The notes beneath the pieces are model-generated. The model searched no databases. It worked only from the letters and a program-made list of their open reading frames with translations, and was not told where the DNA came from. Made by a program: the position numbers and the translations under genes. Below are positions 1,422 through 18,041 of a DNA stretch of 39,571 nucleotides, piece by piece (the stretch's first letter is position 1; every line of letters begins with the position of its first letter). Source of the stretch: Nitrospirota bacterium (GTDB lineage: Bacteria; Nitrospirota; UBA9217); the NCBI GenBank assembly GCA_021783455.1, contig JAJXTW010000002.1, positions 1 to 39,571 of the forward strand. The letters are read 5' to 3'.

Positions 1422-1422
1422 A

Positions 1423-1450
1423 AGTTCGGAGTTCAGAGTTCGGAGTTCAG
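1423..1450. repeat. Tandem heptamer AGTTC(G/A)G x4 (= 14-mer AGTTCGGAGTTCAG x2)
   Basis: Perfect 14-mer copies at 1423-1436 and 1437-1450. The complementary word ACTCCGAAC at 1504-1512 is the reverse complement of GTTCGGAGT. Confidence 0.8.
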
Positions 1451-1451
1451 A

Positions 1452-2459
1452 GTGGGGAGTAAAAATCCAAATGAAATAACGAGAGCAAAACAGAATACTT
1501 CGTACTCCGAACCCCTGACTCCGAGCTTGGTCCATACACCTGTCCTGCTTAAGGAAGCCGTTGATCTCATCGCCCCGCGGTCCGGCGGGGTGTATGTCGA
1601 CGGAACGCTCGGCGCCGGAGGCCATGCAGCGGAAATCCTGAAGCGCTCATCGCCCGACGGCATTCTCATCGGGATGGATCAGGACGCAGAAGCAATCGAG
1701 CGAAGCAAACTGAGCCTCGCGGCATACGGCGATCGCGTGCACATCCGGCGCGGGAATTACCGGGATCTGCCGCAGGTCCTCTCCGGGCTGCGATACGAGA
1801 AAGTAGACGGAGTGCTGCTGGACCTGGGTGTTTCCTGGTTTCATCTGAAGACGCCGGAACGGGGCTTCAGCTTCCAGCTGGACGGACCGCTCGATATGCG
1901 CATGGATATGAGCAGACCGCAGACCGCAGCGGATCTGGTGAACAACCTCTCCCGGAACGAGCTTGCGAGGATCCTCCGTGAATTTGGGGAAGAGCGCAAA
2001 GCAGGCGCCATAGCGAGGGCCATAGAAAAGGCGAGGGCCCGGAGGCCCATCACGAGTACGGTTCAACTGGCCGACATTGTTACGAGCGTATTTCCTCCCT
2101 ACCCTCCCCGGAGAACTCATCCGGCTACACTCACGTTTCAGGCTTTGCGCATAGCGGTGAATGACGAGCTCGGCGCACTCAGCGAAGGGGTGAGCGCGGT
2201 GATTCCGCTGCTCTCGCCCGGCGGCAGGATCGCGGTGATAACGTTTCACTCGCTCGAGGATCGCATCGTGAAGCGGGCCTTTACGGCGGAAGCAAGGGGC
2301 TGCATTTGCCCCCCGAAACTGCCCGTCTGCGCGTGCGGGAAAAAACCGGTGCTCAAGATACTGACGCAGCCGCCGATCATTGCGGGACCGGATGAAGTGG
2401 ACCGGAATCCGGCGGCACGGAGCGCCAAGCTCCGGGCGGCGGAGAAACTGCCGGACTAA
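1452..2459 (+). CDS. rsmH: 16S rRNA (cytosine1402-N4)-methyltransferase RsmH (MraW)
   Basis: HTPVLLKEAVDLI...GGVYVDGTLGAGGHA SAM-binding signature, and position within the dcw cluster. The start is uncertain: GTG 1452 has GGAG 6 nt upstream, or TTG 1527 just before HTPVLL. Confidence 0.92.
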   Translation: MGSKNPNEITRAKQNTSYSEPLTPSLVHTPVLLKEAVDLIAPRSGGVYVDGTLGAGGHAAEILKRSSPDGILIGMDQDAEAIERSKLSLAAYGDRVHIRRGNYRDLPQVLSGLRYEKVDGVLLDLGVSWFHLKTPERGFSFQLDGPLDMRMDMSRPQTAADLVNNLSRNELARILREFGEERKAGAIARAIEKARARRPITSTVQLADIVTSVFPPYPPRRTHPATLTFQALRIAVNDELGALSEGVSAVIPLLSPGGRIAVITFHSLEDRIVKRAFTAEARGCICPPKLPVCACGKKPVLKILTQPPIIAGPDEVDRNPAARSAKLRAAEKLPD

Positions 2460-2544
2460 GGAAATTGCCGGATGAGATTCCCGGGCTGCGGCGTTCGGAC
2501 GGGAAAATTTCAAACTTTTATTCAGTCCAGAAAAGAGTTATCCT

Positions 2545-2874
2545 ATGAATTCGGGGGTCGGCAGCATCGGTGCATTGGTGTTCGAGCGGAGCAAGCGGGG
2601 AAAGTTTCGCCGCGTTGTCGCTACCCTCTGCATCATTGCCGGGCTGCTCCTGTACGTCGGAGGCAAGGTAAAAATCATGCGTCTCGGGTATCAGATCGAA
2701 GCCCTGGAGCATGAGAAGCAGGAACTGGAACGGGCAAACGGGTCCCTGCGGATCGAGGCCTCGAGCCTGGCTTCGCCGGCACGGATAGAGGAGATTGCCA
2801 CCAAGCGTCTCGGCATGGTCAGGCCGTTGAAGGAAAACATCGTGATCGTCAAGAGGAACGCACCCAAACAGTAG
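2545..2874 (+). CDS. ftsL: Cell division protein FtsL-like (single TM plus coiled coil)
   Basis: 109 aa with the TM segment VVATLCIIAGLLLYVGG followed by a heptad-like region LGYQIEALEHEKQELERANGSLRIE. The position between rsmH and ftsI is the canonical one. Confidence 0.7.
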   Translation: MNSGVGSIGALVFERSKRGKFRRVVATLCIIAGLLLYVGGKVKIMRLGYQIEALEHEKQELERANGSLRIEASSLASPARIEEIATKRLGMVRPLKENIVIVKRNAPKQ

Positions 2875-2880
2875 GCGGGT

Positions 2881-4611
2881 ATGGAAAGACGGGGGAGAAT
2901 AGTTGCGATATTGGCCATCATGGTCCTGGGCTTTCTGCTCGTGGCCCTGCGGCTGGTGTACCTCCAGGTATTTGAACGGGCAAAACTGACGGCACGCGCC
3001 GAGCGGCAGCAGGAACAGGTGCTGACGCTGGTGCCCAAACGCGGCGCTATTTTAGACCGCATGGGCAGAGCGCTCGCCGTCAGCCTCGATGTCGATTCGG
3101 TATACGGCATTCCCTCGAAGATCGACGACCCCCGCGCGCTGGCCCGACGGCTTTCCCGGATCCTGCATGAAAATCCGGCCACCCTGGAACGGAAGCTGGC
3201 CGGCGACAAGCATTTCGTCTGGCTGAGCCGCAAGGTCGATCCGACCGAAGCGGAGCAGGTCAAGGAGTTGGGGTCCGCGGAGATTCAGCTTCGAGCCGAA
3301 CCGAAGCGGTTTTATCCGAACAAATCCCTTGCCGGACCCCTGCTCGGGTTCGCCGGTATCGATAATGAAGGCCTCGAAGGTTTGGAACGGGCCTACGATA
3401 AGATCCTTCGCGGCGTCAACGGCTGGATGCTTGCGGAGATGGATGCCAAGGGACGAATGGTGTTTCCGGGCGGCTCAGGTTTTCAATATCACATGCCGAA
3501 GCCGGGCCATGACATCATCCTCACCATCGACGAGGTGATCCAGCATATCGCCGAGAAGGAGCTCGATGCCGCGCTGGCGAGCTCCCACGCCAAGGGAGGG
3601 GTCTGCATTGTTATGAATCCGCAGACCGGAGAAATCCTGGCGCTGTCGGTGCGGACGAACGGGTACGGTCGCCCGGCGTTCAACCCCAATGAACCGCAGC
3701 GCTACAAACCCGCGGAGTGGCGAAACCGGGCGGTGACGGATGCTTATGAACCCGGTTCCATATTCAAGGTGGTCCTGGCTTCAGCGGCGCTCGAAGAGCG
3801 CGTCGTCCACCCTCTGGAACGGCTCGATTGCAGCGCCGGGTACATCAAGCTCGCCGACCGCGAGATCAAGGACGCGCACAAAAACGGTGTGCTTACTTTT
3901 TCCGACGTGATCGCAGAATCGAGCAACGTGGGTACGATCAAGGTCGCGCTCCGGCTCGGCAAAGACCGGCTTTACAAATATATTACCGCTTTCGGGTTCG
4001 GCAAGAAGACCGGCGTGGACCTCCCCGGAGAAATTCCGGGTCTGCTCGAGGACACCCGGCTGTGGTCCGGCGTGTCTATCGGCGAGATCGCCATCGGCCA
4101 GGAGATCGGGGTGACCCCGCTCCAGATGGCCGCGGCCTACTGCGCGATCGCCAACGGCGGCGTGCTCATGAAGCCCTATACAGTCTCGGAGATTGTGGAC
4201 CCCGGCGGGGGAGCGGGGCAAAAATTCGGGCCCCAGCCCGTGGGGCGCGTCATTTCGGTAGAGACCTGCGCCAAGGTGGTCGGCTTGCTGAAGCGGGTGA
4301 TTGATATGGGCACGGGCCAGGAGGCAAAGCCCTCCGGGTACAGCGCGGCGGGAAAGACCGGCACGGCCCAGAAAATCGACCGCCGCACGGGCGAATACTC
4401 GAAGAAAAACTATGTGAGCTCGTTTGTCGGGTTCGCGCCGGCCAGCTCCCCGAGGGTTGTGATCCTTGTGATGATCGACACTCCGGAAAGTTCCATCTAC
4501 GGCGGCACGGTGGCGGCGCCGGTGTTCCGGGCAGTGGCGGAACAGAGCCTCGCCTATCTGCAGGTGGCGCCTGATGATATGGGAGGCAGGATGCTCCTGG
4601 TGACGAAATGA
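2881..4611 (+). CDS. ftsI: Peptidoglycan D,D-transpeptidase FtsI (PBP3 class)
   Basis: N-terminal TM segment; SxxK = SIFK, SxN = SSN, KTG = KTGT. Position within dcw. Confidence 0.92.
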   Translation: MERRGRIVAILAIMVLGFLLVALRLVYLQVFERAKLTARAERQQEQVLTLVPKRGAILDRMGRALAVSLDVDSVYGIPSKIDDPRALARRLSRILHENPATLERKLAGDKHFVWLSRKVDPTEAEQVKELGSAEIQLRAEPKRFYPNKSLAGPLLGFAGIDNEGLEGLERAYDKILRGVNGWMLAEMDAKGRMVFPGGSGFQYHMPKPGHDIILTIDEVIQHIAEKELDAALASSHAKGGVCIVMNPQTGEILALSVRTNGYGRPAFNPNEPQRYKPAEWRNRAVTDAYEPGSIFKVVLASAALEERVVHPLERLDCSAGYIKLADREIKDAHKNGVLTFSDVIAESSNVGTIKVALRLGKDRLYKYITAFGFGKKTGVDLPGEIPGLLEDTRLWSGVSIGEIAIGQEIGVTPLQMAAAYCAIANGGVLMKPYTVSEIVDPGGGAGQKFGPQPVGRVISVETCAKVVGLLKRVIDMGTGQEAKPSGYSAAGKTGTAQKIDRRTGEYSKKNYVSSFVGFAPASSPRVVILVMIDTPESSIYGGTVAAPVFRAVAEQSLAYLQVAPDDMGGRMLLVTK

Positions 4612-6152
4612 AACTCGCCCAGCTCCTGAACGTACTGGAGACAACAACAACTCTGCCGAGTGAAGCGCTGGACAGAGAGGCGCTGAACATCGCCCATGAT
4701 TCCCGGAAGGTGACGCCGGGGTCCCTGTTCGTGGCCGTGCGAGGATTTCACTCGGACGGCCATGAGTTTGTTTTGCAGGCCGCAAAGCAGGGCGCAATCG
4801 CCGTTATCGTTGAACAGGAGAACAAAGACGCGGCTGCCATCGGCGCGGTCCAGATCATTGTCAAGGACTCGCGCAGGGCGCTCGCGCTCCTTGCCGATGC
4901 CTTCTACGGCCATCCGTCGCAAAAGCTGAAGCTTATCGGCGTTACGGGGACCAACGGCAAGACCACGACGACCTATCTCGTGAAAGCCATCATCGAAGCC
5001 GCCGGAGGGACCGCGGGCCTCATCGGCACCATCGATTACCGCGTGGGCGACAGGGTCTACCCGGCGCCGAACACGACGCCTGAATCGCTCGATCTGCAGC
5101 GGCTTCTTTCGGAAATGATGGGCGTGGGCGCGGACACCTGCGTCATGGAGGTCTCGTCGCATGCGCTGGCCCTGGGCAGGACCACGGGATGCAGCTTTGT
5201 TGCCGCGGCATTCACGAACCTGACGCAGGACCACCTGGATTTCCACGAGACCATGGCGTCGTATTTTGAAGCCAAGCTGCTGTTGTTCAAAGGCCTCGGC
5301 CCCGAGGCGCACGCCGTGGTCAATCTTGACGATGGGCGGGCAATGGAGATTATCGAAGCGACGCAGGCGAAGGTGATCACCACGGGCTTCTCGGATCGCT
5401 GCGACGTGCATCCGGGAAACGAGATACGGCATGGCATCTTCGGCCTGCAACTGGATATTGTGACGCCGCAGGGGACGATCAGAATCGAATCGCCGCTCGT
5501 GGGCAGGCATAATATTTATAATATCCTGACCGCGGTTGGAATCGGGGTGGCGTTGGGTTTCGAGAGCGACGACATCGGCCGGGGCATCAAAGCCATGAAG
5601 GCCGTCCCGGGCCGCATGGAGAAGGTCATCGAAGGCCAATCCTATGGGGTGATCGTGGACTACGCGCATACGGAAGACGCGCTTATGCGGCTCCTTGAAG
5701 CCGTCCGGGAAATCGCCGAGAACAGGATCATCACGGTCTTCGGCTGCGGCGGCGATCGCGACCGGAACAAGCGGCCCAAGATGGGCGCGGCGGCGGCTAA
5801 GGGAAGCGATGTCGTGATCGTGACTTCGGACAACCCGCGGACCGAGGACCCCTCCATGATCATTCGGGAGGTTGAAGCCGGCATGTCATCTTCGGGCATA
5901 AAAGTCCCGACCCCTGGCGCCGTGAATATCAACCGCGCGGGCAAGACCCCCTACCTGATCATACCCGACCGGCATGATGCGATTGCAGCGGCCGTCAACA
6001 TGGCGAAGCCGGGCGATGTTGTCGTGCTTGCAGGGAAAGGGCATGAGGATTACCAGATCATCGGCGAGAGGAAGACCCATTTCGATGACCGGGAAGTAGC
6101 GCGGGAAGAGATAGAAAAAAGCATGAAACAGGGGGCAGGGAGCCGGAGTTAA
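4608..6152 (+). CDS. murE: UDP-MurNAc-L-Ala-D-Glu--2,6-diaminopimelate ligase MurE
   Basis: P-loop GVTGTNGKTTT and the DNPR motif (TSDNPRTEDP) typical of meso-DAP-adding MurE. ATGA overlap with the ftsI stop at 4608-4611. Confidence 0.93.
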   Translation: MKLAQLLNVLETTTTLPSEALDREALNIAHDSRKVTPGSLFVAVRGFHSDGHEFVLQAAKQGAIAVIVEQENKDAAAIGAVQIIVKDSRRALALLADAFYGHPSQKLKLIGVTGTNGKTTTTYLVKAIIEAAGGTAGLIGTIDYRVGDRVYPAPNTTPESLDLQRLLSEMMGVGADTCVMEVSSHALALGRTTGCSFVAAAFTNLTQDHLDFHETMASYFEAKLLLFKGLGPEAHAVVNLDDGRAMEIIEATQAKVITTGFSDRCDVHPGNEIRHGIFGLQLDIVTPQGTIRIESPLVGRHNIYNILTAVGIGVALGFESDDIGRGIKAMKAVPGRMEKVIEGQSYGVIVDYAHTEDALMRLLEAVREIAENRIITVFGCGGDRDRNKRPKMGAAAAKGSDVVIVTSDNPRTEDPSMIIREVEAGMSSSGIKVPTPGAVNINRAGKTPYLIIPDRHDAIAAAVNMAKPGDVVVLAGKGHEDYQIIGERKTHFDDREVAREEIEKSMKQGAGSRS

Positions 6153-6193
6153 TTCCGGCCTCCGGCGGCCTTCTGGATCCTGCATCGGGTGCA

Positions 6194-7561
6194 ATGAACG
6201 ACGCTGACAAAAAAATGCTCTTGGAAATTCCGGGGAGGATGGAGCGGGTGGAAATAACAGGAGTATCCATAGACTCCAGGAACATCAGCGAGGGGCAACT
6301 GTTCGTCGCCATCAAAGGCGACCGCTTCGACGGCCACGATTTCGTCCCCGAAGCGATCAGGAAGGGCGCCTGGGGCGCGCTCGTCGAGCGGTCCGTGCTG
6401 GAAAACAAATTTGCCAGCCTCGGCGGCCTGAAGAACATTCTGGCGGTCGAAGACACGCTCTATGCGCTGCAAGAAATGTCGTACATGCACCGGAAGAAAT
6501 TTGTCATTCCCGTCGTCGGTATCACCGGCTCGAACGGCAAGACGACGACCAAGGAAATGCTCGCCTGCATCCTGAAACAAAAAGGGCCCGTGCTGAAAAA
6601 CGAGGGGAACCTGAATAATCACATCGGTGTGCCGCTGACGCTTCTCAAACTGAACGAAAGCCACTGGGCTGCCGTTGTTGAAATGGGCATGAGCGCCCCA
6701 GGGGAGATCGACACGCTTGCCCGGCTGACAGCTCCTACAGTCGGCGTAATCACGAACATCGGACCGGCTCACCTCGAGTTTTTCGGCTCCATGGAAAAAG
6801 TGGCCGAGGCAAAGGGGGAGCTGCTCGACAACCTCAAGCCTGACGCAACGGCCGTGCTGAACGCTGATGACCGGCATTTCGGCATTCTGCGAAGCAAGAT
6901 GCCCGGCCGGGTCATGACCTTCGGTATCGTTAACAAGGCCGATGTCGCGGCAATTAACCTCCGGCAGGAGAAAGAGTTCACGGACCTGACGATTGCGGCG
7001 GATGGCGCGAAGATCGATATCCGGCTGCGCACCGTGGGCAGCCACAACGTGTATAATGCTCTCGCCGCAGCAGCCGCGGCGATCGCCGTGGGCATGCCGA
7101 TCGATGCGGTGAAGTACGGATTGGACGCGTTTACACCCATTGCCGGCCGGTCGGAGATCAAAAAAATTGAAGGCAGGACCGTGCTTGCCGATTACTACAA
7201 TGCCAATCCCGCTTCGATGGAGGCGGCGATCAAAACGCTGGCCGAGCTCGGCGCGGGCAGGAAAGCGATCGCCGTGCTCGGCGACATGCTTGAACTGGGT
7301 GAGGCGTCAATCGAGGCGCACCAGGAGATCGGACGAACAGCGGCGCAATGCAAGGTGGATCTCCTGATCACGGTCGGTGAGCTGGCTGCGCATATGGAAA
7401 CCGGCGCGCTGAAAGCGGGGATGGCGAAAGAACGGGTGATCCGGGCGACGTCCCATGCGAATGCCGCAGAGCTGCTGAAGAAACTGTCCAAACCCGGCGA
7501 CGCGATCCTTATCAAGGGCTCGCGGGGAATGAAAATGGAAAAGATTCTGGAGGCATTTTAA
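6194..7561 (+). CDS. murF: UDP-MurNAc-tripeptide--D-Ala-D-Ala ligase MurF
   Basis: [15 protein letters not shown]-loop and Mur ligase layout. TAATG overlap with the mraY start. Confidence 0.92.
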
Positions 7562-8643
7562 TGCTCTATCATCTGCTGTATCCGCTGCACGACAGGTTCT
7601 CCGGCTTTAACGTGTTCCGGTACATCACCTTCCGGAGCGCGGGCGCAGTCCTGACGGCGCTTCTGGTGACGTTTGTGCTCGGTCCGTCGATGATTGCCTG
7701 GCTCCGCAGGCTCAAGGTGGGCCAGCACGTCCGAAACGACGGGCCGCAGACCCATCTTGCAAAGCAAGGCACGCCGACCATGGGCGGGCTTCTGATCGTC
7801 GCAGCGCTGGTGAGCTCGGTCCTCTTGTGGTCCGACCTCAGGAACAAGTACGTGTGGGTCGTGCTCTTTGCCACGCTCGCCTTCGGCGGGATCGGTTTTT
7901 GGGACGATTATTTGAAAGTGGTGAAAAAACGATCCACCGGTCTCAGGGCGATCCAGAAGTTCGGGCTCCAGATAATCGCTTCAGCCGTGATCGGCTTTTT
8001 CCTCTACTATAACCCAGGCGATCCGAACAGCACCTCTCTGTCCCTGCCGTTTTTAAAGCGGATCTTTCTGGACCTGGGGTGGTTCTATATTCCCTTCGTG
8101 ATCATTGTGATCGTGGGTTCGTCCAATGCCGTGAACCTGACAGACGGCCTCGACGGGCTGGCCATCGGCCTCGTGGGCATCGCGGCCACGGCCAATGCCG
8201 TGATCGTGTATCTCGGCGGGAATAAGATCATTGCCGAGTATCTGAAGATCCTCTATATCCCGGGAAGCGGCGAGCTCACGATCTTCTGCGGCGCGCTCCT
8301 GGGCGCGAGCCTCGGGTTCCTGTGGTACAACGCCCATCCTGCCGAGGTGTTCATGGGAGACGTGGGGTCGCTGTCCCTCGGCGGCGCGCTCGGCACGCTC
8401 GGCGTGGTGACCAAGCACGAACTGATCCTGGTGATCGTGGGAGGAATTTTCGTGATCGAGACCATCTCGGTGATCCTCCAGGTGGGGTCCTACAAGCTGA
8501 CGGGAAAGCGCATCTTCAGAATGGCGCCGATCCACCATCACTTTGAGCAGATCGGATGGCCGGAGTCCAAGGTCATTACGCGGTTCTGGATCATCGGGAT
8601 CATCCTGGCACTGGTTTCGATCGCAACGTTAAAGCTGCGGTGA
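7561..8643 (+). CDS. mraY: Phospho-N-acetylmuramoyl-pentapeptide transferase MraY
   Basis: Polytopic membrane protein. [13 protein letters not shown] and APIHHHFE signatures. Confidence 0.95.
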
Positions 8644-8650
8644 CGATAAA

Positions 8651-8783
8651 GCAAATACCAAATGACAAACACCAAATAGCAAATAAGCACCAAGCGTCAA
8701 ATTCAGAAATTTGAAACGTTTTGAAATTGGAACTTTGCAATTGGAATTTATTTGGCATTTGATATTTGCCATTTGGAATTTAT
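8651..8783. repeat. Long imperfect inverted repeat (arms about 43 nt of CAAAT/CCAA words) with a central mini-hairpin
   Basis: The left arm 8651-8693 aligns with the reverse complement of the right arm 8741-8783 at about 33 of 45 positions by hand. Central perfect hairpin: TCAAATT(8697-8703)-CAGA-AATTTGA(8708-8714). Confidence 0.75.
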
Positions 8784-8796
8784 CCACGGAGGCACG

Positions 8797-10134: not shown

Positions 10135-10137
10135 CGC

Positions 10138-10230: not shown

Positions 10231-10239
10231 AGAGAATGC

Positions 10240-11352
10240 ATGATTAAAACAACAAGTCATACGGGGCACTACGACCGGACGCTGCTGTCCGCCGTCCTGA
10301 TGCTGCTTGTGGTGAGCGTGGTGATGGTCTACAGCTCCAGCAGCGTTGTGGCGCTCACGACCTACAATGATTCGGCGTTCTTCATGAAGCGCCAGCTCCT
10401 CTGGGGGATCGTGGGACTCGCGCTCATGGCGCTCACCATGCGCATCGATCACCGTCGATTATCGGACCGGCGTGTTGTGGCGGCGCTCATGGCGCTCTCG
10501 CTTCTCCTGCTCGCAGCGACCCTCGTCCCCGGCGTCGGCAGGATGATCAACGGATCCCGGAGATGGCTGCGGCTCGGCATGCTTTCATTTCAGCCTGCCG
10601 AGCTTGCCAAGGTTGTGCTGGTGGTGTACATGAGCTATTACATTGCCAAGAAAGACGGCCGGGTCCGCGATTTTATGAACGGGCTGGTGCCTGCCTACGT
10701 GGTGACCGCGGTATTTCTCGGCGTGGCTGTGCTCCAGCCGGACTTCGGCAGCGCCATGACGCTTGCCGGCGTTTCCGGCGTCATGCTCTTTGCGGGCGGA
10801 GCGAACGTGCTGCACCTCGGCGGAACGCTTGTGGCGGCGCTTCCCGTTATTGCCTTTGCCGTGGCGGACAAGGCGTACCGGTGGAGAAGGATCACCGCTT
10901 TCCTCAACCCCTGGTCGGACCCGCAGGGCGCGGGCCACCAGATCATCCAGTCCTTCCTGGCCTTCGGGAGCGGCGGCGTATTCGGCCGCGGGCTGGGTGA
11001 GGGGCGGCAAAAGCTCCTCTTTTTGCCGGAGCGGCACTCGGACTTCATCTACGCCGTGATCGGGGAAGAGCTGGGACTGATCGGCGCGCTCGCGGTGCTG
11101 TTCCTGTTCCTCCTCATCTTATGGAGGGGCGTACGGATCGCGCTTGCCGTGGATGATCCGTTCAGCAGACTGCTTGCGCTCGGCATCACGCTGCTCATCT
11201 GTCTTCAGGGATTGATCAATATGGCCGTGGTCACCGGGCTGCTGCCCACCAAGGGCATTGCGCTCCCGCTCGTAAGCTACGGGGGCTCGTCGCTCGTGAT
11301 CACCATGGCGGCGCTCGGTGTGCTGCTGAATATTTCGAAAGAAACGGGGTAG
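10240..11352 (+). CDS. ftsW: Peptidoglycan glycosyltransferase FtsW (SEDS family)
   Basis: Multi-TM protein with FQPAELAK and LPERHSDFIYAVIGEELG motifs. ATG at 10240; the track ORF 10213 uses a non-ATG start inside the hairpin element. Confidence 0.9.
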   Translation: MIKTTSHTGHYDRTLLSAVLMLLVVSVVMVYSSSSVVALTTYNDSAFFMKRQLLWGIVGLALMALTMRIDHRRLSDRRVVAALMALSLLLLAATLVPGVGRMINGSRRWLRLGMLSFQPAELAKVVLVVYMSYYIAKKDGRVRDFMNGLVPAYVVTAVFLGVAVLQPDFGSAMTLAGVSGVMLFAGGANVLHLGGTLVAALPVIAFAVADKAYRWRRITAFLNPWSDPQGAGHQIIQSFLAFGSGGVFGRGLGEGRQKLLFLPERHSDFIYAVIGEELGLIGALAVLFLFLLILWRGVRIALAVDDPFSRLLALGITLLICLQGLINMAVVTGLLPTKGIALPLVSYGGSSLVITMAALGVLLNISKETG

Positions 11353-11353
11353 G

Positions 11354-11373
11354 GGAATTTCGGAATGCGGAAT
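11354..11373. repeat. GGAAT stutter (GGAATTTCGGAATGCGGAAT), a half-copy of the GAATTTCGGA(A/T)T element
   Basis: GGAAT occurs at 11354, 11362 and 11369. The core GAATTTCGGAAT matches 17963-17974 at 11 of 12 positions. Confidence 0.6.
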
Positions 11374-11396
11374 AAAAAAAGAGGCGTCCCAGGAAT

Positions 11397-12479
11397 ATGA
11401 AAGTTGTCATTGCGGGCGGAGGGACAGGCGGACATCTCTATCCCGGGATCGCGATCGCCCGGGAAGTGCTGCAAGAAAGCGGCAACGAGGTCCTGTTCGT
11501 CGGGACAAAGCAGGGGATCGAAGCGAAGGTGCTTCCGCGGGAAGGACTGCCGATCCGTTTTATTTCCGTGGGAAAGCTGAAGGGGATGAAGCTTGGCGCG
11601 GTCATACGGACGATGGTCACCCTGCCGCTCAGCATTGTGCAGTCCCTCGCGCTGCTGCGCGAGAAAAGACCGGATGTGGTGATCGGCGTGGGGGGCTATT
11701 CCTCGGGGCCCGTAGCGCTTGCGGCCTGGATGTCGCGGATCCCGCTCTTCATCGTGGAGCCGAACTCCTACGCCGGACTGGCAAACAGAAAGCTGGGAAG
11801 GCTGGCCACGAAAGTGATCCTCTGCTTTCCGGGAACCGGGGCGCGGCATTTCTTTCCAGCCGGGAAAACCATAATGGCCGGCCCGCTGGTCCGGAAGGGC
11901 ATCGATCAGGGCGATCGAGAGAAGGCCTGCGCAGATTTCGGGCTTGAGGCAGGGAACTTTACGGTGTTCGTCATGGGAGGAAGCGGCGGCGCTCATGCCA
12001 TCAACGTGGCCATGAAAGAGGCGGCCCGGGAACTGAAGGAGATAAAAAATTTTCAGATCCTGCACCAGACCGGGGAAAAGGACGTTGCCGAGCTGACTGC
12101 CGGGTACCGGGACGCGGGTGTCGCCTCCGTGGTCCTTCCGTACATTCACGATATGGCCGGCGCGTATTCAGTCGCGGACCTGGTGGTCTCCCGTTCAGGC
12201 GCGACGACCGTTGCGGAGCTTGCGGTTTGCGGAAAGCGGGCAATGCTGATCCCCTTTCCCTTTGCCGCGGACAATCATCAGGAGCACAACGCGCGAACGC
12301 TGGCGAAACGGGGAATGGCGGACGTGATCGTGCAAAAGGACGTAACGCCTGCGAAACTGGCAAGCCTTATAAAAAAATACGTTGGCCAGGGGGGCGCTTC
12401 AGCAAAAGCCCCCCGCATGGAAAACACGGCGGCGGAAGAGATTGCGAGGATCTGTAAAGACTATGTTCGAACGAATTAA
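11397..12479 (+). CDS. murG: UDP-GlcNAc--undecaprenyl-PP-MurNAc-pentapeptide GlcNAc transferase MurG
   Basis: N-terminal [22 protein letters not shown]-loop, GT28 layout, and position within dcw. Confidence 0.93.
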
Positions 12480-13848
12480 GCATATTCATTTCGTCGGCAT
12501 CGGCGGCATCGGCATGAGCGGCATTGCCGAAGTGCTGTTGAACCTCGGTTACAAAGTGTCCGGTTCGGACATGAAAGAGTCCGATACCACGGAACGGCTT
12601 CGGAAGCTCGGGGGCGAGATCGCGATCGGCCACCGGGCCGAGAACATCACGTCGCCCCACGTGGTGGTGATCTCGTCGGCGGTAAAGAACGACAACGTGG
12701 AGGTGGTTTCCGCCCGGGAGAAGCAGGTGCCGGTGATCCCCCGGGCCGAGATGCTCGCCGAGCTCATGCGGCTCAAGTACGGCGTGGCCATCGCGGGAGC
12801 CCACGGCAAGACCACGACGACCTCAATGGTCGCGACGGTGCTCGCCGCGGGCGGCATCGACCCCACGGTCGTGATCGGCGGCAAGCTCAACAGCCTGGGA
12901 ACGAACGCCAAGCTCGGCCAGGGCGAGTTCCTCGTTGCCGAGGCTGACGAGAGCGACGGCAGTTTCCTCAAGCTTTCGCCCACGATCGCCGTAGTCACGA
13001 ATATCGACGCGGAACACCTGGACTATTACAAAGACATCGACGAGATCAAGGCCGCTTTTCTCACCTTCATCAACAAGGTGCCGTTCTACGGCGTCTCGGT
13101 GCTCTGCCTCGACCAGCCGCATATCCAGGCGCTTATTCCGTTCCTTGAGAAACGGTATCAGACCTACGGCATGAGCACCCAGGCGGACTACCAGGCTCGG
13201 GACATCTCGCTCCGGCCGCTGGGATCGACCTTCAAGGTGCTGCACCACAATGACGACCTCGGGTTCTTCGAGCTTGCCGTGCCGGGCGCGCACAACATCA
13301 GCAACAGCCTTGCCGCGATCGCCGTGGCGCGCGAACTGGACGTGGACCTGGAAATCATCAGGAAGGCGCTCAAGGAATTCAGCGGCGTGCAGCGGAGGTT
13401 CCAGATCAAGGGCGAGGCGCAGGGGGTCCTCATTGTCGACGACTACGGACACCATCCCACGGAAGTGAAGGCCACGCTCGCGGCTGCCGCGACGGGCATG
13501 GAGCGGCGCGTGGTGGTCCTGTTCCAGCCTCACCGGTACACGCGGACCCAGCATCTGCTCGAGGAGTTCTTCACCGCTTTTAACCAGGCGGACAAACTCA
13601 TCGTCATGGACATTTACGCGGCAGGAGAGAAGCCGATCCCCGGCGTGACGGGACAGGCGCTCTACGAAGGCATCAAGAAGCACGGTCACAAGGATGTCTC
13701 GTTCATCCCGGAGCGGGAGAAGATCGTCGACCACCTGGCCACGGTCCTGAAAAAGGGGGACCTCCTGATCACGCTCGGAGCAGGGGATGTGTGGAAGGTG
13801 GGGGAGCAGGTCCTGGAGAAATTGCAACATGGAGATCGCAAACTTTAA
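12463..13848 (+). CDS. murC: UDP-N-acetylmuramate--L-alanine ligase MurC
   Basis: [29 protein letters not shown] and EADESDGSF motifs. ATG 12463 overlaps the murG end by 17 nt. Confidence 0.93.
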
Positions 13849-14737
13849 GGGTGAAATAAAGCTGCAGGAACCTCTGAGCAGGCACACGTCGTACGCCATC
13901 GGAGGGCCCGCGGACGTGTTTGCCTATCCCCTTGACCGGAATGATCTCATCGCGCTCCTTCGGGAGATCAGGGGAAACGGGCTCAGATACTTCATCCTCG
14001 GCGGCGGAACGAACCTGCTGGTGCGCGACGGAGGTTTCCGCGGCGTCGTGATCAGCCTCCAGCGCATGCAGGCCGTAAAGATCGAACGGGAGTATCGATC
14101 GATCGGCGGCGCATTTGTCGTGGTCTCTGCCGAAGCAGGCGCGCCGCTCTCCAGGCTCCTCTCCTTTGCCGTGGAAGAAGGGCTTACGGGTCTCGAGTTT
14201 GCCGCGGGAATTCCGGGCACCGTGGGCGGCGCGGTATGCATGAATGCCGGCACCGTTGCCGGAGAGTTCGGCGACGTGATTGATGCCGTGACGCTGCTCT
14301 CGCCGGGCGGCGAACTCGTCATCCGGGGCAGGGAGGAGATGGCATTCGGGTACCGGACGTGCACGATTCCCGACGGGCACCTCGTCCTCGATGCGCGAAT
14401 CATATTGCGGCGCGACGATAAGAAGAAGGTCCAGGCGCGGGTCAAGGAGCTCATCGACGCCCGGAAGCAGCGTCAGCCCGCGGGGTTGCCGAATGCGGGA
14501 TCGATTTTCAAGAACCCCCATGAGGAGTCGGCGGGCAAGTTGATCGAAACAGCGGGGCTGAAAGGAAAAACCGTGGGCAACGCCAAAGTCTCCGACAAGC
14601 ATGCCAACTTTATCGTAAACCAGGGCAATGCCAAGGCCTCGGACGTGCTGGCGCTTATGGAGCTCGTGAAGGCAAAGGTCCTTGAGGTGCATGGGGTGCG
14701 GCTTGAGCCGGAGATCAAGATCATCGGGGAAGATTGA
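13829..14737 (+). CDS. murB: UDP-N-acetylenolpyruvoylglucosamine reductase MurB
   Basis: FAD-binding N-terminus [16 protein letters not shown] and the C-terminal GSIFKNP motif. ATG 13829 overlaps the murC end by 20 nt. Confidence 0.92.
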
Positions 14738-14744
14738 GAAGAAA

Positions 14745-14772
14745 GGGTCAAGGGGCCGGGGTCAAGGGGCAT
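14745..14772. repeat. Tandem 14-mer GGGTCAAGGGGC(CG/AT) x2 spanning the ddl start codon
   Basis: Copies at 14745-14758 and 14759-14772. The word resembles GGGTTCAGGGGCC at 16647. Confidence 0.7.
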
Positions 14773-15691
14773 GGGGAAAATAACAAATAAGAAAATCGGC
14801 GTGTTGATGGGCGGGCTTTCATCGGAGCGGGAGGTTTCGCTCGCAACAGGCAACGCCATCCTGAAGGCCTTGCAGGAAAAAGGGTACAAGGTTGTCGCCA
14901 TCGATGTGAACCGGGATGTCGCGGAAGTGATCCGTAAGTCCGGCATCGAGATCGCATTCAACGGTTTGCACGGAAAATATGGCGAGGACGGCGCGATCCA
15001 GGGGCTGCTTGAGTTTTCCGGCATTCCTTATACGGGATCGGGAATTCTTGCAAGCTCCGTGGGCATGAACAAAATCCTGTCCAAGCTGGTATTCAAGGCC
15101 CACGGTCTGCTCGTCGGCCCGTACCTGGTCGTTCATGCGGAAAAGCGCGAGCAGCTCTCTGAAGCGCTCTCGATCATGTCGTTTCCGCTGGTGGTGAAGC
15201 CGAGTTCCGAAGGCTCCAGCGTCGGCGTGAGCCTGGTCTACCGGCACGACGAACTTGCTCCCGCGGCGGACCTTGCGTTCAAATACGATCGTGAGATCCT
15301 GGTCGAAAAATACATTACCGGCAAAGAAGTCCAGGTCGGCGTTCTGGGAGACCGGGCGCTCGGGGCTATCGAGATCGTGCCGAAGAACGTATTCTACGAC
15401 TATGAAGCGAAGTATAAGGAAGGCATGTCTGAGCACTTTTTCCCCGCCCGTGTTCCCGAGGAGGTGTACCAACGGGTGCTCCAGTCCGGCCTGGATGCGC
15501 ACCGGGCGCTGGGATGCAAGGGATACAGCAGGGTGGATTTCATCATCGACGCTGCCGGGGCGCCGTACATTCTCGAGGTGAATACCCTTCCGGGGATGAC
15601 GGCAACGAGTCTCCTGCCCGATATTGCGCGGGGAACGGGAATCTCGTTCCCCGATCTGGTGGAGGAAATCCTGCGGCTGGCGCTCGTTTAA
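14771..15691 (+). CDS. ddl: D-alanine--D-alanine ligase
   Basis: ATP-grasp layout: VLMGGLSSEREVSL, LVVKPSSEGSSVGV, EVNTLPGMT. Confidence 0.93.
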   Translation: MGKITNKKIGVLMGGLSSEREVSLATGNAILKALQEKGYKVVAIDVNRDVAEVIRKSGIEIAFNGLHGKYGEDGAIQGLLEFSGIPYTGSGILASSVGMNKILSKLVFKAHGLLVGPYLVVHAEKREQLSEALSIMSFPLVVKPSSEGSSVGVSLVYRHDELAPAADLAFKYDREILVEKYITGKEVQVGVLGDRALGAIEIVPKNVFYDYEAKYKEGMSEHFFPARVPEEVYQRVLQSGLDAHRALGCKGYSRVDFIIDAAGAPYILEVNTLPGMTATSLLPDIARGTGISFPDLVEEILRLALV

Positions 15692-15790
15692 TTGCGGATT
15701 GTGGATTTTGGATTGCGGATTTTAAAATGGATTCAACAGTGATGCGGTTTTGTTTTTGGTTCCGAAATTCTCAATCTGCAATCCGAAATT
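15690..15790. repeat. Inverted repeat with GGATT-stutter arms between ddl and ftsQ
   Basis: The left arm 15690-15718 (AATTGCGGATTGTGGATTTTGGATTGCGG) aligns with the reverse complement of 15762-15790 (AATTTCGGATTGCAGATTGAGAATTTCGG) at about 21 of 29 positions. The spacer is 43 nt. Confidence 0.7.
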
Positions 15791-15793
15791 GAT

Positions 15794-16687
15794 ATGCGAG
15801 ACTACAAGAACGTAAAAGTTCCGAAGTCATACCGAAATACATCGAACCGGATCACGGTAAAACGGGTCGATGTCGGGCGCAGCAACGCGCACACCGGGAA
15901 ACGCATTGCGGGAATCGGCGGCCTGCTGCTGAACGTCGCAGCCGTTCTTACGTTTGCGGGGGCCGGCTTTCTGGGCTGGCAGGTCTACCAAGGGGTCTTG
16001 CATGCCGACGCACTGGTGGTTTCGGGTGTGGATGTGAAAGGGGTGAGGCAACTGACCGAGGCTGATCTCAAGGACATCGTGGGCGCGTTTACGGGCCAGA
16101 ACATTTTTCGCGTAGACCTTGAAGCCGCCGCCAGGCGCGCGCGCGCGAACCCCTGGGTCAGGGAAGTCAGGATCCATCGCAGCCTTCCGAACAGGATCAC
16201 GATGGTCTTTGTCGAGCGGACGCCTGCCATGGTCCTGGATACGGGTTCGGCGCGGTACCTGCTGGATGACGAGGGCGTCATCATCGAGCGGTTGGTGAAA
16301 GAGCAGGCCCTGGCGTGGCCGCTCCCCGTTGTGGCCATCAAGGACTATCAGGGGCATCCCGGCGACCAGGTGACGTCAGAGGGGATGGCCGAAGCCATGC
16401 AGCTCCTTGCTGAAATTTCTGCGCGGGGCGGATGGCAGCTTGCCAACGTGACGATCAAGGCAAACTCGCCCGACTCGCTCAGCGTCGTGTATGCGGACCA
16501 TGAATTCAAGCTTGGAAGCGGGCGCTATGCCGAGAAGCTTCGCAGACTGGCGGAAGTGCTGGCTGACGTGCAGCAGCGCGGGATCGAAATCGCCTACGTG
16601 GACCTCCGGCCTGAACGACAGGCGGCGGCGATGGTGAAAAAAGGCAGGGTTCAGGGGCCGGGGGCCGGGGTCCGGAAAAAGCACTGA
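15794..16687 (+). CDS. ftsQ: Cell division protein FtsQ (POTRA domain)
   Basis: Single TM segment (GGLLLNVAAVLTFAGAGFLGW) followed by a POTRA-like region VSGVDVKGVRQLTEADLKDIVGAFTGQNIFRVDL. Position before ftsA. The last roughly 13 codons run through a repeat arm. Confidence 0.85.
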   Translation: MRDYKNVKVPKSYRNTSNRITVKRVDVGRSNAHTGKRIAGIGGLLLNVAAVLTFAGAGFLGWQVYQGVLHADALVVSGVDVKGVRQLTEADLKDIVGAFTGQNIFRVDLEAAARRARANPWVREVRIHRSLPNRITMVFVERTPAMVLDTGSARYLLDDEGVIIERLVKEQALAWPLPVVAIKDYQGHPGDQVTSEGMAEAMQLLAEISARGGWQLANVTIKANSPDSLSVVYADHEFKLGSGRYAEKLRRLAEVLADVQQRGIEIAYVDLRPERQAAAMVKKGRVQGPGAGVRKKH

Positions 16688-16720
16688 AGTAGTTCTTGAA
16701 CCCCGACGACTGGACCCCGG
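16647..16720. repeat. Crossing (A-B...A'-B') complementary words at the ftsQ/ftsA junction
   Basis: A = GGGTTCA 16647-16653 pairs with TGAACCC 16697-16703. B = CCGGGGTCC 16665-16673 pairs with GGACCCCGG 16712-16720. Confidence 0.65.
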
Positions 16721-16739
16721 ACGCTTCGAGGAGGATGTT

Positions 16740-17963
16740 GTGGCCAAAAAAAAGCCGGATAATGTGCTTGTGGGATTGGATCTGGGGACCACCAAGGTGT
16801 GCGCCATCGTCGGACAAGTGAAGGACGACGGGCAGGTGGACATCATCGGGATCGGCATCAGTCCTTCCCATGGTCTGAAAAAAGGCGTTGTGGTCAACAT
16901 CGACAGCACGGTGGAGTCCATCAAAAAAGCGGTGCAGGAAGCCGAGCTTATGGCCGGCGTGGAGATCGGCTCGGTCTATGTCGGCATCTCCGGCGGCCAT
17001 ATCAAAGGCATCAACTCACGCGGTGTGGCGGCGATCAAAAACCGGGAGGTGGGGCCCGCGGACGTGGCGCGGGCGATCGACGGCGCCCGGGCGGTAAACA
17101 TACCCATGGACCAGCAGATCCTCCATGTGCTCCCCCAGGAATTCATCATCGACGACCAGGACGGCATTAAGGACCCGCACGGCATGTCGGGCACCCGGCT
17201 CGACGTCAAGGTGCACATCATTACCGGCGCCGTAACCGCCATCCAGAACATCGTGAAGAGCTGCTCCCGCGCCGGGCTGCACGTGAGCGACCTGGTTCTC
17301 CAGCCACTGGCATCCTCCCGGGCCGTGCTTACGACCGAAGAGCAGGAACTGGGCGTGGTGGTCGTTGACATCGGAGGCGGGACCACGGACCTGGCGTTCT
17401 TTCTCGAGGGAAGCCTGTGGCACACCGAGGTGCTGCCCATCGGCGGGAACCACCTGACGAACGACATCGCCATCGGCCTCCGCACGCCGGCATCGGAAGC
17501 GGAGAAGATCAAGATCAAGCACGGCTGCGCCCTCTCGTCGCTCGTGAAGCATGAGGAAACGCTCGATGTTCCGAGCGTGGGAGGCAGGCCGCCCCGGCTG
17601 CTGTCGCGCCAGATCCTGTGCGAGATCATCGAGCCCCGCATGGAAGAGTTGTTCGGCATGGTGCAGCAGCGGCTGAAGAAAACAGGCTTCGAAGACATGT
17701 TCGCATCGGGCGTCGTTCTGACCGGCGGCACGGCGCTCATGGAAGGCGCCCAGGACGCGGCGGAGCGCTATCTGGGCCTGCCGATCCGGCGCGGAGCGCC
17801 GCGGAACATCGGCGGCCTCATGGACGTGGTCAACAGCCCCATCTATGCAACCGGCGTGGGCCTCGTGCTCTACGGCGCCGAAAACCTGCAGGAAGCGCCG
17901 CGGAAGTTCCGGCCCGGCGGATCAATCAATCGGTTTTGGAAGTGGCTGGGAGAATACATTTAG
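16740..17963 (+). CDS. ftsA: Cell division protein FtsA
   Basis: Actin-fold motifs VGLDLGTTKVCAIVG and DIGGGTTD. GTG start at 16740 with GGAGG at 16730-16734. Confidence 0.95.
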   Translation: MAKKKPDNVLVGLDLGTTKVCAIVGQVKDDGQVDIIGIGISPSHGLKKGVVVNIDSTVESIKKAVQEAELMAGVEIGSVYVGISGGHIKGINSRGVAAIKNREVGPADVARAIDGARAVNIPMDQQILHVLPQEFIIDDQDGIKDPHGMSGTRLDVKVHIITGAVTAIQNIVKSCSRAGLHVSDLVLQPLASSRAVLTTEEQELGVVVVDIGGGTTDLAFFLEGSLWHTEVLPIGGNHLTNDIAIGLRTPASEAEKIKIKHGCALSSLVKHEETLDVPSVGGRPPRLLSRQILCEIIEPRMEELFGMVQQRLKKTGFEDMFASGVVLTGGTALMEGAQDAAERYLGLPIRRGAPRNIGGLMDVVNSPIYATGVGLVLYGAENLQEAPRKFRPGGSINRFWKWLGEYI

Positions 17964-17964
17964 A

Positions 17965-18041
17965 ATTTCGGATTTTAGATTTTGGATTGCGGAATGAACG
18001 TCTTTATCGATTTTTTTAATCCGAAATCCGCAATCCGCAAT
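17965..18041. repeat. Inverted repeat with GGATT/GCGGA-stutter arms between ftsA and ftsZ
   Basis: The left arm 17965-17989 (ATTTCGGATTTTAGATTTTGGATTG) aligns with the reverse complement of 18017-18041 (ATTGCGGATTGCGGATTTCGGATTA) at 19 of 25 positions. The spacer is 27 nt. Confidence 0.7.

Follow-up and report, generated by a model that had tools for sequence, protein, structure and literature searches.

Tandem arrays built from units of about seven nucleotides have been described in several bacteria, and they are the closest known counterparts of the repeat elements that fill many gaps of the division and cell wall (dcw) gene cluster in an uncultured Nitrospirota bacterium. The DNA considered here is a stretch of 39,571 nt from this organism (GCA_021783455.1, contig JAJXTW010000002.1), referred to as the window. 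In Geobacter metallireducens, paired sites on opposite strands each consist of three to five tandem units of 7, 8 or 9 nt and lie a variable distance apart, for example at proB/proA (Aklujkar et al. 2009, PMC2700814). One G. metallireducens element, (GGGACCG)4, is present in 49 copies, some of them intragenic (PMC2700814). Insertion sequence (IS) elements lie a set distance away from paired sites, and binding of global regulators of the IHF/HU type was offered as a guess at their role (PMC2700814).

Heptamer arrays of GGGAATC in Xanthomonas and GGGGAYT in Nostoc are biased toward noncoding DNA and tend to comprise four units (Rehm et al. 2015, PMC4692102). Their G-rich strand is sense within 50 bp after stop codons and antisense before start codons, with overlap of the stop codon, and close relatives display “extensive length and sequence variation.” The same study demonstrated G-quadruplex (G4) formation by GGGAATC arrays, remarked that inverted repeats may form stem-loops, found no link to mobile elements, and left a function that “still remains to be elucidated” (PMC4692102). 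The units of long simple sequence repeats (SSRs) are most commonly heptamers, with slippage put forward to account for them (Mrazek 2007, as cited in PMC4679880). Arrays of TAACTGA occur in marine Beggiatoaceae, cyanobacteria, and Bacteroidetes and were proposed to bind a translational regulator (MacGregor 2015, PMC4679880).

Other precedents act in RNA or spread as DNA. In the 5′-untranslated region (UTR) of Haemophilus influenzae hmw, a long RNA hairpin has (ATCTTTC)n as one of its arms. This hairpin affects expression and is cleaved by RNase III, and the number of repeats changes under the influence of the hairpin itself, of transcription, and of RNase III (Rapun-Araiz et al. 2025, PMC12721329). 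Intercistronic stem-loops set the stoichiometry of the cip-cel operon through processing (Xu et al. 2015, PMC4423207). Repetitive extragenic palindromic (REP) sequences, their BIME and REPIN assemblies, and the associated RAYT transposases represent short intergenic hairpin repeats that are tolerated between co-transcribed genes and stabilize upstream mRNA (PMC2817692, PMC8266576).

The elements of the window belong to a widespread, known repeat kind, tandem arrays of ~7-nt units often accompanied by an inverted array 20-140 nt away. Their architecture is already described in the paired sites of G. metallireducens (PMC2700814) and the heptamer arrays of Xanthomonas and Nostoc (PMC4692102), which a preliminary description of this DNA did not recognize. 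The window is a real, unusually dense instance of this repeat kind and not a dcw-specific regulatory system.

Heptamer arrays and hairpins in the dcw cluster

Pfam matches place a complete dcw cluster on the + strand from ~540 to 19314, in the order mraZ-STAS-rsmH-ftsL-ftsI-murE-murF-mraY-murD-ftsW-murG-murC-murB-ddl-ftsQ-ftsA-ftsZ. The boundaries of ftsW through ftsZ are identical in independent gene calls on a second assembly, and intergenic DNA makes up 10.3% of the window. The following elements lie at the junctions of the cluster; periods and copy numbers are from Tandem Repeats Finder (TRF), and RBS denotes the ribosome-binding site.

1422-1528, + strand: AGTTCRG heptamer hairpin at STAS/rsmH, beginning 1 nt past the STAS stop (1419-1421) and reaching the likely rsmH start (~1527); arms 1422-1453 and 1497-1528 (32 nt, 75% complementary); period 7 with 4.4 copies, also period 14 at 100% match; RNA fold of -38.6 kcal/mol
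6130-6171, + strand: weak G-rich hairpin (GGGGGCA GGGAGCC GGAG) spanning the murE stop, its left arm coding the MurE C-terminal tail; arms 6130-6150 and 6151-6171 (21 nt, 71% complementary); fold not significant
8651-8784, + strand: CAAAT-family element (NCAAATN heptamers, a core, and an inverted ATTTG arm) at mraY/murD, reaching the murD RBS; arms 8653-8704 and 8730-8781 (52 nt, 73% complementary) plus several 7-nt-shifted registers; period-7 arrays on both arms
10138-10230, + strand: imperfect hairpin at murD/ftsW; outer stem GAATCCGG/CCGGATTC, inner arms 10172-10185 and 10207-10220
11353-11373, + strand: solo array GGGAATT TCGGAAT GCGGAAT right after the ftsW stop, with no inverted partner and no fold
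14745-14772, + strand: solo array GGGTCAA GGGGCCG GGGTCAA GGGGC at murB/ddl, running into the ddl ATG (14771), with no hairpin; G4 motif on the sense strand at 14745-14769
15690-15790, + strand: NNGGATT heptamer hairpin at ddl/ftsQ, from the ddl stop to 4 nt ahead of the ftsQ ATG; arms 15690-15719 and 15761-15790 (30 nt, 77% complementary); period 7, 4.4 copies
16647-16725, + strand: G-rich (GGGGYCR) element at ftsQ/ftsA, with its left arm in the ftsQ open reading frame (ORF), the stop codon (16685-16687) in the loop, and its right arm in the gap; arms of 14 nt, 79% complementary; period 7, 3.1 copies; G4 motif at 16647-16670
17958-18041, + strand: NNGGATT heptamer hairpin at ftsA/ftsZ, reaching the ftsZ RBS; arms 17958-17974 and 18018-18034

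The tandem nature of these elements is evidenced by several independent counts. TRF reports period-7 arrays at 1423-1453, 8652-8685, 8719-8781, 15691-15721, 16654-16675, 17965-17993, and 18018-18041. A lag scan with a threshold of at least 15 of 21 matches, set against 200 local shuffles, detects eight lag-7 segments in the window where 0.32 are expected and where no shuffle gave more than two. Six of the eight are intergenic and one lies in the last codons of ftsQ. Lag 7 is also the only lag at which an autocorrelation scan finds several segments with at least 17 of 21 matches. The repeats that had been reported at the dcw junctions are thereby confirmed as stuttered words, but the word size given for them, 5-8 nt, does not hold, as the units are heptameric almost throughout.

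Within an array, a constant 5-nt core is combined with two variable positions (NNGGATT, NCAAATN). The arms are tandem direct heptamers that are not individually palindromic, and complementarity exists only between the two arms taken together. Including the elements outside the cluster, units measure 7 nt (8-9 nt at 28617 and 37541) and spacers ~21-72 nt. An inverted copy faces the arms at 1422, 8653, 15690, 17958, 28617, and 37546, as had been proposed for most loci; at 22154-22220, the inverted-repeat search found none, and this locus is a period-9 tandem. The words differ from locus to locus only in part. GGATT or GGAAT recurs at three loci (11353, 15690, and 17958), and G-rich words of the GGGGYMR type are found at 6130, 14745, and 16647, giving three or four G-rich loci in 39.6 kb. 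The spacers of the GGATT-family copies share no sequence.

Full elements fill their junctions wall-to-wall, with the first arm 0-7 nt past the upstream stop and the second reaching the next RBS or start; otherwise they reach into the final codons of the gene upstream. Every full element of the window opens with its purine-rich arm, an order that is valid on both strands because the palindrome is symmetric. The exception in placement is the 16647 element, whose first arm lies within an ORF and codes a Gly-rich FtsQ tail (the protein ends in ...GRVQGPGAGVRKKH), a correction to the earlier placement of this element in the gap. The murE/murF gap, in which no element had been noticed, carries the weak G-rich hairpin at 6130-6171, whereas the rsmH/ftsL gap, correctly described as lacking one, served as a control and gave no fold signal.

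The position of the arms also affects gene calling. The longest ORFs of rsmH (GTG 1452), murD (TTG 8752), and ftsW (TTG 10213) start inside repeat right arms, and the Pfam RsmH match begins only at residue 26 of the GTG-1452 ORF. Domain matches, RBS positions, and independent gene calls indicate true starts at ~1527 (rsmH), 8797 (murD), and 10240 (ftsW). The elements therefore invite mis-annotation of start codons.

Folding of the RNA was assessed element by element against 200 dinucleotide shuffles, since a sliding 100-nt scan of minimum free energy (25 shuffles) was too noisy and register-dependent for ranking. In the cluster, none of the 200 shuffles folded as well as 1420-1530 (z -5.0), 8646-8786 (z -2.9), or 15688-15793 (z -5.2), and five of 200 were as good as 17958-18045 (z -2.1). 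Despite short inverted arms, 10134-10234 (z -0.8) and 16643-16724 (z -1.1) were equaled by 43 and 31 of 200 shuffles, respectively. Outside the cluster, no shuffle of 200 equaled 28620-28730 (z -4.3) or 37538-37650 (z -5.5). The expectation that the hairpins would fold better than shuffled sequence is thus borne out for four of the six full dcw hairpins (z -2.1 to -5.2) and for two beyond the cluster, but not for the elements at murD/ftsW and ftsQ/ftsA.

Searches for known signals at the elements were negative. A scan of the whole window with Rfam 15 at gathering scores gave no matches, and a scan for sigma-70 promoters gave no promoter-like site overlapping the elements. Among 31 terminator-like sites on both strands, none coincides with a full element in sense orientation, in agreement with the earlier judgment that the elements are not terminators; the single overlap with an element is a minus-strand site at 1509-1491.

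Repeats of the same style occur elsewhere in the window:

22176-22216: period-9 tandem (TTCTCCGCG TATTCCGCG CCTCCGCG) between convergent genes; not a hairpin, z -1.64
26696-26758: G-rich period-8/16 tandem array (GACGCGGG...); TRF score 77, no inverted partner, no fold
28617-28726: GGAGAAAGG-word hairpin between minus-strand aminotransferase and ferredoxin genes; period 8/17; arms 28617-28638 and 28705-28726
36523-36556: short period-8 array, (CTTTGCGC)x3, in an intergenic gap, found by TRF and by the lag-8 scan
37541-37645: period-9 word hairpin (GCCACAGAG ... CTCTGTG) between two minus-strand genes; outer stem TTTTGCCACA/TGTGGCAAA; period 9; arms 37546-37561 and 37597-37612

Recurrence outside the cluster had been claimed at three places, of which 28625-28725 and 37541-37645 are indeed hairpins and 22154-22220 is not; the arrays at 26696-26758 and 36523-36556 had been missed.

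Turnover among relatives and spread across bacteria

Comparison with the following sequences shows how the elements change over increasing distances:

L369 and L370 (ENA ERZ27233572; GCA_027325105.1): 99.9% identity to window 9834-19494
L328 (“Nitrospirae bacterium DBS2-1.bin42”): 94.8% identity to window 5985-10634 (4.66 kb)
L001, L002, and L003, Nitrospirota metagenome-assembled genomes: FtsZ identity of 83, 76, and 62%
L201 and L202, metagenome contigs: Ddl identity of 74 and 76%

The last two came from a metagenome scan with Ddl, which found these two relatives (74-76% identity) and none closer. An exact scan of GTDB genomes for an 18-mer of the CAAAT core gave 88 matches, essentially all of them chance singles in AT-rich genomes, with L328 as the useful exception.

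At the shortest distance nothing changes. The two independent assemblies differ from window 9834-19494 by 8-14 single nucleotide polymorphisms, with zero indels and zero differences within any element, and the unit number of the arrays is invariant at this 99.9% identity.

At 95% identity the elements vary in two ways. In L328, the murD/ftsW element contains one extra, clean 7-nt unit, GGGAGCA, after window position 10171, and outside the murE/murF block this unit is the sole alignment gap between the two sequences (94.8% identity over 4.66 kb). The CAAAT element at mraY/murD differs at 5 of 153 positions, compared with a third-codon-position rate of 7-9% in the flanking genes. At murE/murF, however, an unrelated 69 nt of the window correspond to a 72-nt GCGGAAT hairpin in L328, the left arm of which supplies the MurE C terminus (...IAECGMRIAE). 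This swap is flanked on each side by ~40 nt of hyper-diverged coding sequence; divergence reaches ~30%, against a background of 4-5%, over the final ~10 murE codons and the opening ~13 of murF (L328 ~100-240 versus window 6085-6235). This suggests either that a short tract was recombined in from a divergent donor or that repair tied to the element change was error-prone.

In more distant relatives, gene order is unchanged while junction elements are absent, different, or replaced. At ddl/ftsQ, the GGATT hairpins of the window and L002 agree in word and layout but have unrelated spacers; L001 carries 46 nt of unrelated DNA, L202 a different hairpin, and L003 only 19 nt. The ftsW/murG junction holds a GGAAT half array in the window and (AGTTCGG)x4 in L201. 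At murB/ddl, GGGTCAAGGGG in the window is matched by a period-9 GAGTCTATA hairpin in L002 and by CAAAT elements in L201 and L003, and the murE/murF junction of L201 carries a GACAGAN hairpin. All five relatives examined have the G-rich array at the end of ftsQ; an inverted partner accompanies it only in the window, L002, and L202. Arm lengths vary between orthologous elements. Element-free junctions in the relatives measure 0-20 nt or overlap; hence the operon was tight to begin with and the elements were added to it.

L002 has period-9 hairpins of the same architecture (GAGTCTATA ... AACTCTATG) at both murD/ftsW and murB/ddl (1885-2025 and 6598-6745). At its murD/ftsW junction, a stop-free ORF reading with a start codon at ~1949 crosses the right arm, which it translates as an MNS-type repeat, and enters ftsW in frame.

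CAAAT elements form a true dispersed copy family. Six copies, one each in the window, L328, L003, and L001 and two in L201, occupy the mraY/murD, murB/ddl, and ftsQ/ftsA junctions and can be aligned along both arms and the core; between the two copies in L201, a core stretch of ~65 nt is the same almost base for base. No target-site duplication and no defined or shared termini are evident among the six aligned copies.

The same words recur far beyond these lineages. An exact scan with GGATTNNGGATTNNGGATT, one genome per species, gave at least 120 matches, and those listed come from Planctomycetota, Acidobacteriota, Verrucomicrobiota, Gemmatimonadota, Chloroflexota, Cyanobacteria, Xanthomonadales, Bacteroidota, and Nitrospirota. 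Many of the listed matches show the G-arm, spacer, and C-arm of a hairpin. Among listed G-strand GGATT arrays of at least three units, the C-arm is downstream in 26, upstream in 3, and absent in 45, with spacers of 14-143 nt. A scan with AGTTCNGAGTTCNGAG (the AGTTCNG word) behaves similarly: 86 of the 120 matches listed extend to at least three units, and an inverted partner lies downstream in eight cases and upstream in none.

A word-unbiased set, ~2.2 Mb of dcw loci from diverse bacteria, gives the same preference for heptamers, with 70 arrays at lag 7 and 9, 31, 15, and 13 at lags 5, 8, 10, and 11, respectively. These arrays cluster in a small number of lineages: Nitrospirota, a Roseiflexaceae, a deltaproteobacterium, and an unclassified metagenome contig (L203). 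Left arms are purine-rich in 12 cases versus 2, and right arms are pyrimidine-rich in 7 versus 2. Of 75 arrays in these loci (2.25 Mb), 45 touch or run across a long-ORF stop codon, most often at -10 to +9 nt, and arrays with a purine-rich sense strand number 26 versus 12. Across words and phyla, the purine- or G-rich arm is almost always 5′ on both strands (26:3 for GGATT, 8:0 for AGTTCNG, 12:2 in the word-unbiased set), and the published Geobacter class-3 pairs have the same order.

Elements can also enter genes. In L173 (~6220-6460), a GGATT/AATCC hairpin lies in frame within the conserved sucD (succinyl-CoA synthetase alpha), where it inserts ~35 loop residues (…DRLQNTDCGSRNGGSQSGGCTANPKSQIPNLKSK…) between the DMVRV and RLIGPNCPG motifs. 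Elements can therefore persist inside essential genes when they are translated in frame. Taken together, these surveys establish that the elements are not specific to the dcw cluster, to one genome, or to one phylum.

Origin and maintenance of the elements

With moderate confidence, we read the elements as heptamer-repeat palindromes that propagate themselves and are tolerated between a stop codon and the next RBS. They look like tolerated filler and not like a conserved regulator: array sizes shift in whole units, genomes with 95% identity differ by gain, loss, or replacement of elements, and at least the CAAAT family has been copied between junctions. Arrays may be born and resized by replication slippage, and the inverted arm may arise and stay similar either through intramolecular template switching of the quasipalindrome type or through copying and pasting of the whole element. 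Slippage or template switching had been raised as one origin in the preliminary description, and it fits better than a selected function, given the period of 7, the clean 7-nt indel, arms that pair in multiple registers, and the half and tandem-only copies. An impression by eye that each right arm tracks its own left arm rather than the arm of its orthologue was withdrawn after a lineage-by-lineage test proved negative.

The restriction to gaps and gene ends would follow from the organization of the operon. In a packed, translationally coupled cluster, the stop-to-RBS interval and dispensable C-terminal tails may be the only neutral space. A self-complementary insert would loop out in the mRNA and keep the upstream stop near the downstream start, and such an insert would be especially harmless in a coupled operon because the mRNA hairpin rejoins the two. 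Imperfect duplexes of 25-50 bp are plausible substrates for RNase III or barriers to 3′-exonucleases, as in H. influenzae hmw. Any such RNA effect would be secondary, opportunistic, and lineage-specific and not part of a conserved program of dcw stoichiometry.

Several observations weigh against this explanation. Neutral decay of slipped copies does not predict a 5-nt core with two variable positions (NNGGATT, NCAAATN), and the constancy of the core hints at sequence-specific constraint. Slippage alone does not explain the strong purine-first chirality (26:3, 8:0, 12:2). That distant phyla have the same words points to horizontal spread or to a trans-acting factor common to them. The arms also remain similar between orthologous elements (mraY/murD for the window and L201, ddl/ftsQ for the window and L002) at divergences that should have saturated neutral DNA. 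Moreover, with the test of each arm against its own partner negative, template switching in cis stays a supposition. The conserved cores, the chirality, and the cross-phylum words thus leave room for a trans-acting factor or another generating process.

The strongest alternative, although an unlikely one, is that the elements are non-autonomous transposable elements similar to REPINs or miniature inverted-repeat transposable elements (MITEs), that is, word families moved in trans by a transposase that recognizes tandem heptamers in inverted arms and landing or staying only in stop-to-RBS gaps. Mobility of this kind would account for the CAAAT family, which keeps its core and arms at three junctions and has two near-identical copies in L201, and for word families at non-orthologous junctions in genomes with 62-83% FtsZ identity. 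The in-frame insertion in sucD of another bacterium and the fixed distance between IS elements and paired sites in G. metallireducens (PMC2700814) are also consistent with it. The murE/murF change between 95%-identical genomes could be a gain or replacement of such an element, but it is a replacement that includes diverged flanking codons and not a clean insertion. The CAAAT copies lack target-site duplications and defined termini, and the spacers of the GGATT family are unrelated. Arm length varies by whole units, and solo arms are common (99 of ~130 GGATT arrays among the matches listed have no partner). A search within the window found no transposase or RAYT, and Rehm et al. found no association with mobile elements (PMC4692102). 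The earlier statement that this is not an ordinary REP or MITE family was nevertheless too strong: the palindromic unit of REP sequences and the target-site duplication of MITEs are lacking, but CAAAT is a copy family, and GGATT and AGTTCNG recur across loci, genomes, and phyla.

It is doubtful, yet worth stating, that a single, previously undescribed process that is independent of the word makes all of these elements across phyla, with a 7-nt unit, a 5-nt core and two free positions, and a purine-rich strand running 5′ to 3′ toward the center. The purine-first geometry could be obtained by reiterative extension of 3′ ends at both sides of a break followed by rejoining. It could also be obtained by selection on the transcript, for example, if no C-rich arm may be exposed to Rho before its partner is made. 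Under a word-independent process, the hairpin would persist in operons since the insert is looped out and termination-reinitiation coupling is preserved. The chirality counts, the abutment to stop codons, and the wall-to-wall filling are compatible with such a process.

To a similarly low degree of belief, the elements might be selected RNA punctuation, hairpins that act as RNase III/E sites and barriers to 3′-exonucleases in the dcw mRNA and thereby set the amounts of Mur and Fts proteins. Stable stem-loops are located exactly at the 3′ ends of cistrons and end before the next RBS, in keeping with the stem-loops at processing sites that set cip-cel stoichiometry (PMC4423207) and with the H. 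influenzae heptamer hairpin, an RNase III target that controls expression (PMC12721329). Elements also persist at the same junction at mraY/murD (window, L328, L201), ddl/ftsQ (window, L002), and ftsQ/ftsA (window, L002, L202), and the chirality could reflect selection on transcripts. However, at most junctions the relatives, though their gene order is unchanged, differ in whether an element is there, in its word, or in its structure, and the same elements lie between unrelated genes, between convergent genes, and in frame within genes. For two of the six dcw hairpins, folding is no stronger than that of shuffled sequence. Among 18 elements with a known transcribed strand, the sense strand folds better in about half, with no consistent advantage, and the CAAAT element folds better in antisense (-43 versus -30 kcal/mol).

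Covariation is almost nil as well. RNAalifold predicts 27 consensus pairs for the six CAAAT copies, of which 2 of 27 are compensatory (double change), and the structure is kept mainly by conservation of sequence. Between the window and L328, two substitutions in the arms gave the impression of compensation when paired in a register shifted by 7 nt; on folding, only A8764G improves pairing and the other weakens it. Symmetric repeats at the DNA level fit the folding, covariation, and arm tests better than does selected RNA structure. A role in RNA processing or stability had been suggested at the outset, with absence of the elements from close relatives named as evidence that would contradict it. 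Elements that are absent, different, or replaced while gene order is kept are what the relatives display, and this, with the lack of a sense-strand advantage and the minimal covariation, speaks against conserved punctuation.

It is quite improbable that the elements are DNA-level sites, either heptamer cores bound by a nucleoid or global regulator of the IHF/HU type, as proposed by Aklujkar et al. (PMC2700814), or G-quadruplex arrays acting on transcription or replication. A 5-nt core with two variable positions at a fixed 7-nt spacing, in which three units equal two helical turns, does resemble iterated binding sites, the arrays at 14745 and 16647 are canonical G4 motifs, and quadruplex formation was shown for GGGAATC arrays (PMC4692102). 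Yet one operon contains many words, most of which (GGATT, CAAAT, AGTTCRG) are unable to form three-tetrad quadruplexes; a regular expression finds the motif only at 14745-14769 and 16647-16670 and not in the GGATT, CAAAT, or AGTTCRG arrays. No binding protein is known, comparison of the IHF consensus with the GGATT arms by eye gave no match, positional turnover speaks against site-specific regulation, and no promoter-like sites overlap the elements.

Finally, an assembly or sequencing artefact, a natural concern for low-complexity repeats prone to mis-assembly in a metagenome-assembled contig of an uncultured organism, is refuted by the two independent assemblies of 9834-19494, which are identical in every element, by the presence of the mraY/murD and murD/ftsW elements in L328 from a separate study, and by the same architecture in relatives and other phyla.

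Neighboring features and comparison with described repeats

Several other features of the window deserve mention. A near-consensus promoter-like site (542-570, TTGACA-17-TATACT) lies ahead of mraZ, with an HNH endonuclease gene (134-439, minus strand) just upstream of it, and a STAS-domain gene (1062-1421, + strand) sits between mraZ and rsmH. FtsZ (18055-19314, a 419-aa ORF) has a tubulin domain that begins only at residue 60; this N-terminal extension is common to relatives, in which tblastn matches start from residue 1. At 30171-32102 on the minus strand, a single ORF joins an N-terminal YkuD L,D-transpeptidase to a three-domain Mur ligase (Mur_ligase, Mur_ligase_M, Mur_ligase_C). For peptidoglycan recycling or remodeling, this domain arrangement is unusual.

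A low-GC island at 33000-36000 (42% versus ~58%) encodes a DUF3800 protein (33561-34589, minus strand) and an Mrr-type restriction endonuclease (34626-35513, minus strand) and is probably a horizontally acquired defense islet. At its edge, 33147-33227 forms a strong hairpin that is not stuttered (24-nt arms, 88% complementary, sliding-window z of about -7). Another strong fold, at 25426-25550, falls within a 445-aa ORF without a Pfam match (25265-26602, minus strand), with a sliding-window z of about -5 to -6 on the + strand.

The dcw elements illustrate that a highly conserved, packed operon can be colonized at about half of its junctions by heptamer palindromes with gene order undisturbed. 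Gaps filled in this way should not be taken as conserved regulatory RNA. For annotation, the FtsQ C-terminal tail is array-encoded, as is the MurE tail in L328 and, more weakly, in the window. The repeat kind is common in Acidobacteriota, Planctomycetota, Verrucomicrobiota, Chloroflexota, Cyanobacteria, Nitrospirota, Geobacter, and Xanthomonas and still lacks an agreed origin or function. A testable handle in tractable species is offered by the chirality rule and the abutment to stop codons, combined with the recent RNase III result in H. influenzae.

Among the described systems, those defined by RNA function are the more distant. The H. influenzae hmw hairpin also uses a heptamer SSR as a hairpin arm, but it is a single phase-variation locus in the 5′-UTR of an adhesin gene, its right arm is a G-rich region and not an inverted array, it is pyrimidine-first, and it is not intercistronic. 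The stem-loops known from SRPS (selective RNA processing and stabilization) lie at 3′ cistron ends, as do those of the window, four of which in the dcw cluster are stable; SRPS stem-loops are position-specific and their stability tracks expression, whereas the window elements turn over and lack the corresponding conservation and compensatory change.

Mobile repeats share the inverted layout. REPINs, similar to the window elements, consist of two inverted units with a spacer, but in REP sequences the single unit already forms an imperfect 20-40-nt palindrome, carries a conserved GTAG-type head, exceeds 100 copies, and is linked to RAYT, and the arms in the window are not palindromic units. As in MITEs, inverted arms are present; target-site duplications are not, and internal sequence is shared among the CAAAT copies and not among the GGATT copies.

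Heptamer arrays come closer. The TAACTGA arrays have 2-6 intergenic units by start codons, essential operons included, and a patchy spread across phyla, as seen here; they differ in being almost all direct repeats (one inverted set) of a single dominant word. The heptameric SSRs of cyanobacteria (STRR), Xanthomonas, and Nostoc match the window in their 7-nt unit of at least three and preferably about four copies, noncoding bias near ORF ends, overlap with stop codons, purine-rich sense strand after the stop, and variation in unit number. Rehm et al. stress the G-quadruplex, and most words of the window (GGATT, CAAAT, AGTTCRG) are without G3 tracts; the inverted-pair hairpin, a side remark in their study, is dominant in the window.

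The paired sites of G. metallireducens are the fullest parallel. As in the window, tandem arrays are paired on opposite strands with variable spacing and lie between genes, sometimes within them, and inside operons. The G. metallireducens sites are multicopy; the 39.6 kb of the window carry GGATT-type words at three loci and G-rich words at three or four. The class-3 unit MTYCTGA reads TCAGRAK on the other strand, a permutation of a GGATTCA-type word and close to TCRGAGT in the window, and the class-3 alignment (ATTCTGA/CTCCTGA units) is purine-first on the + strand, as here. The class-2 unit TCTCCGTS[Y] resembles the array at 22176-22216. The two systems differ in phylum and in the association with ISGme8/9, which is not seen in the window, and their word sets overlap in part.

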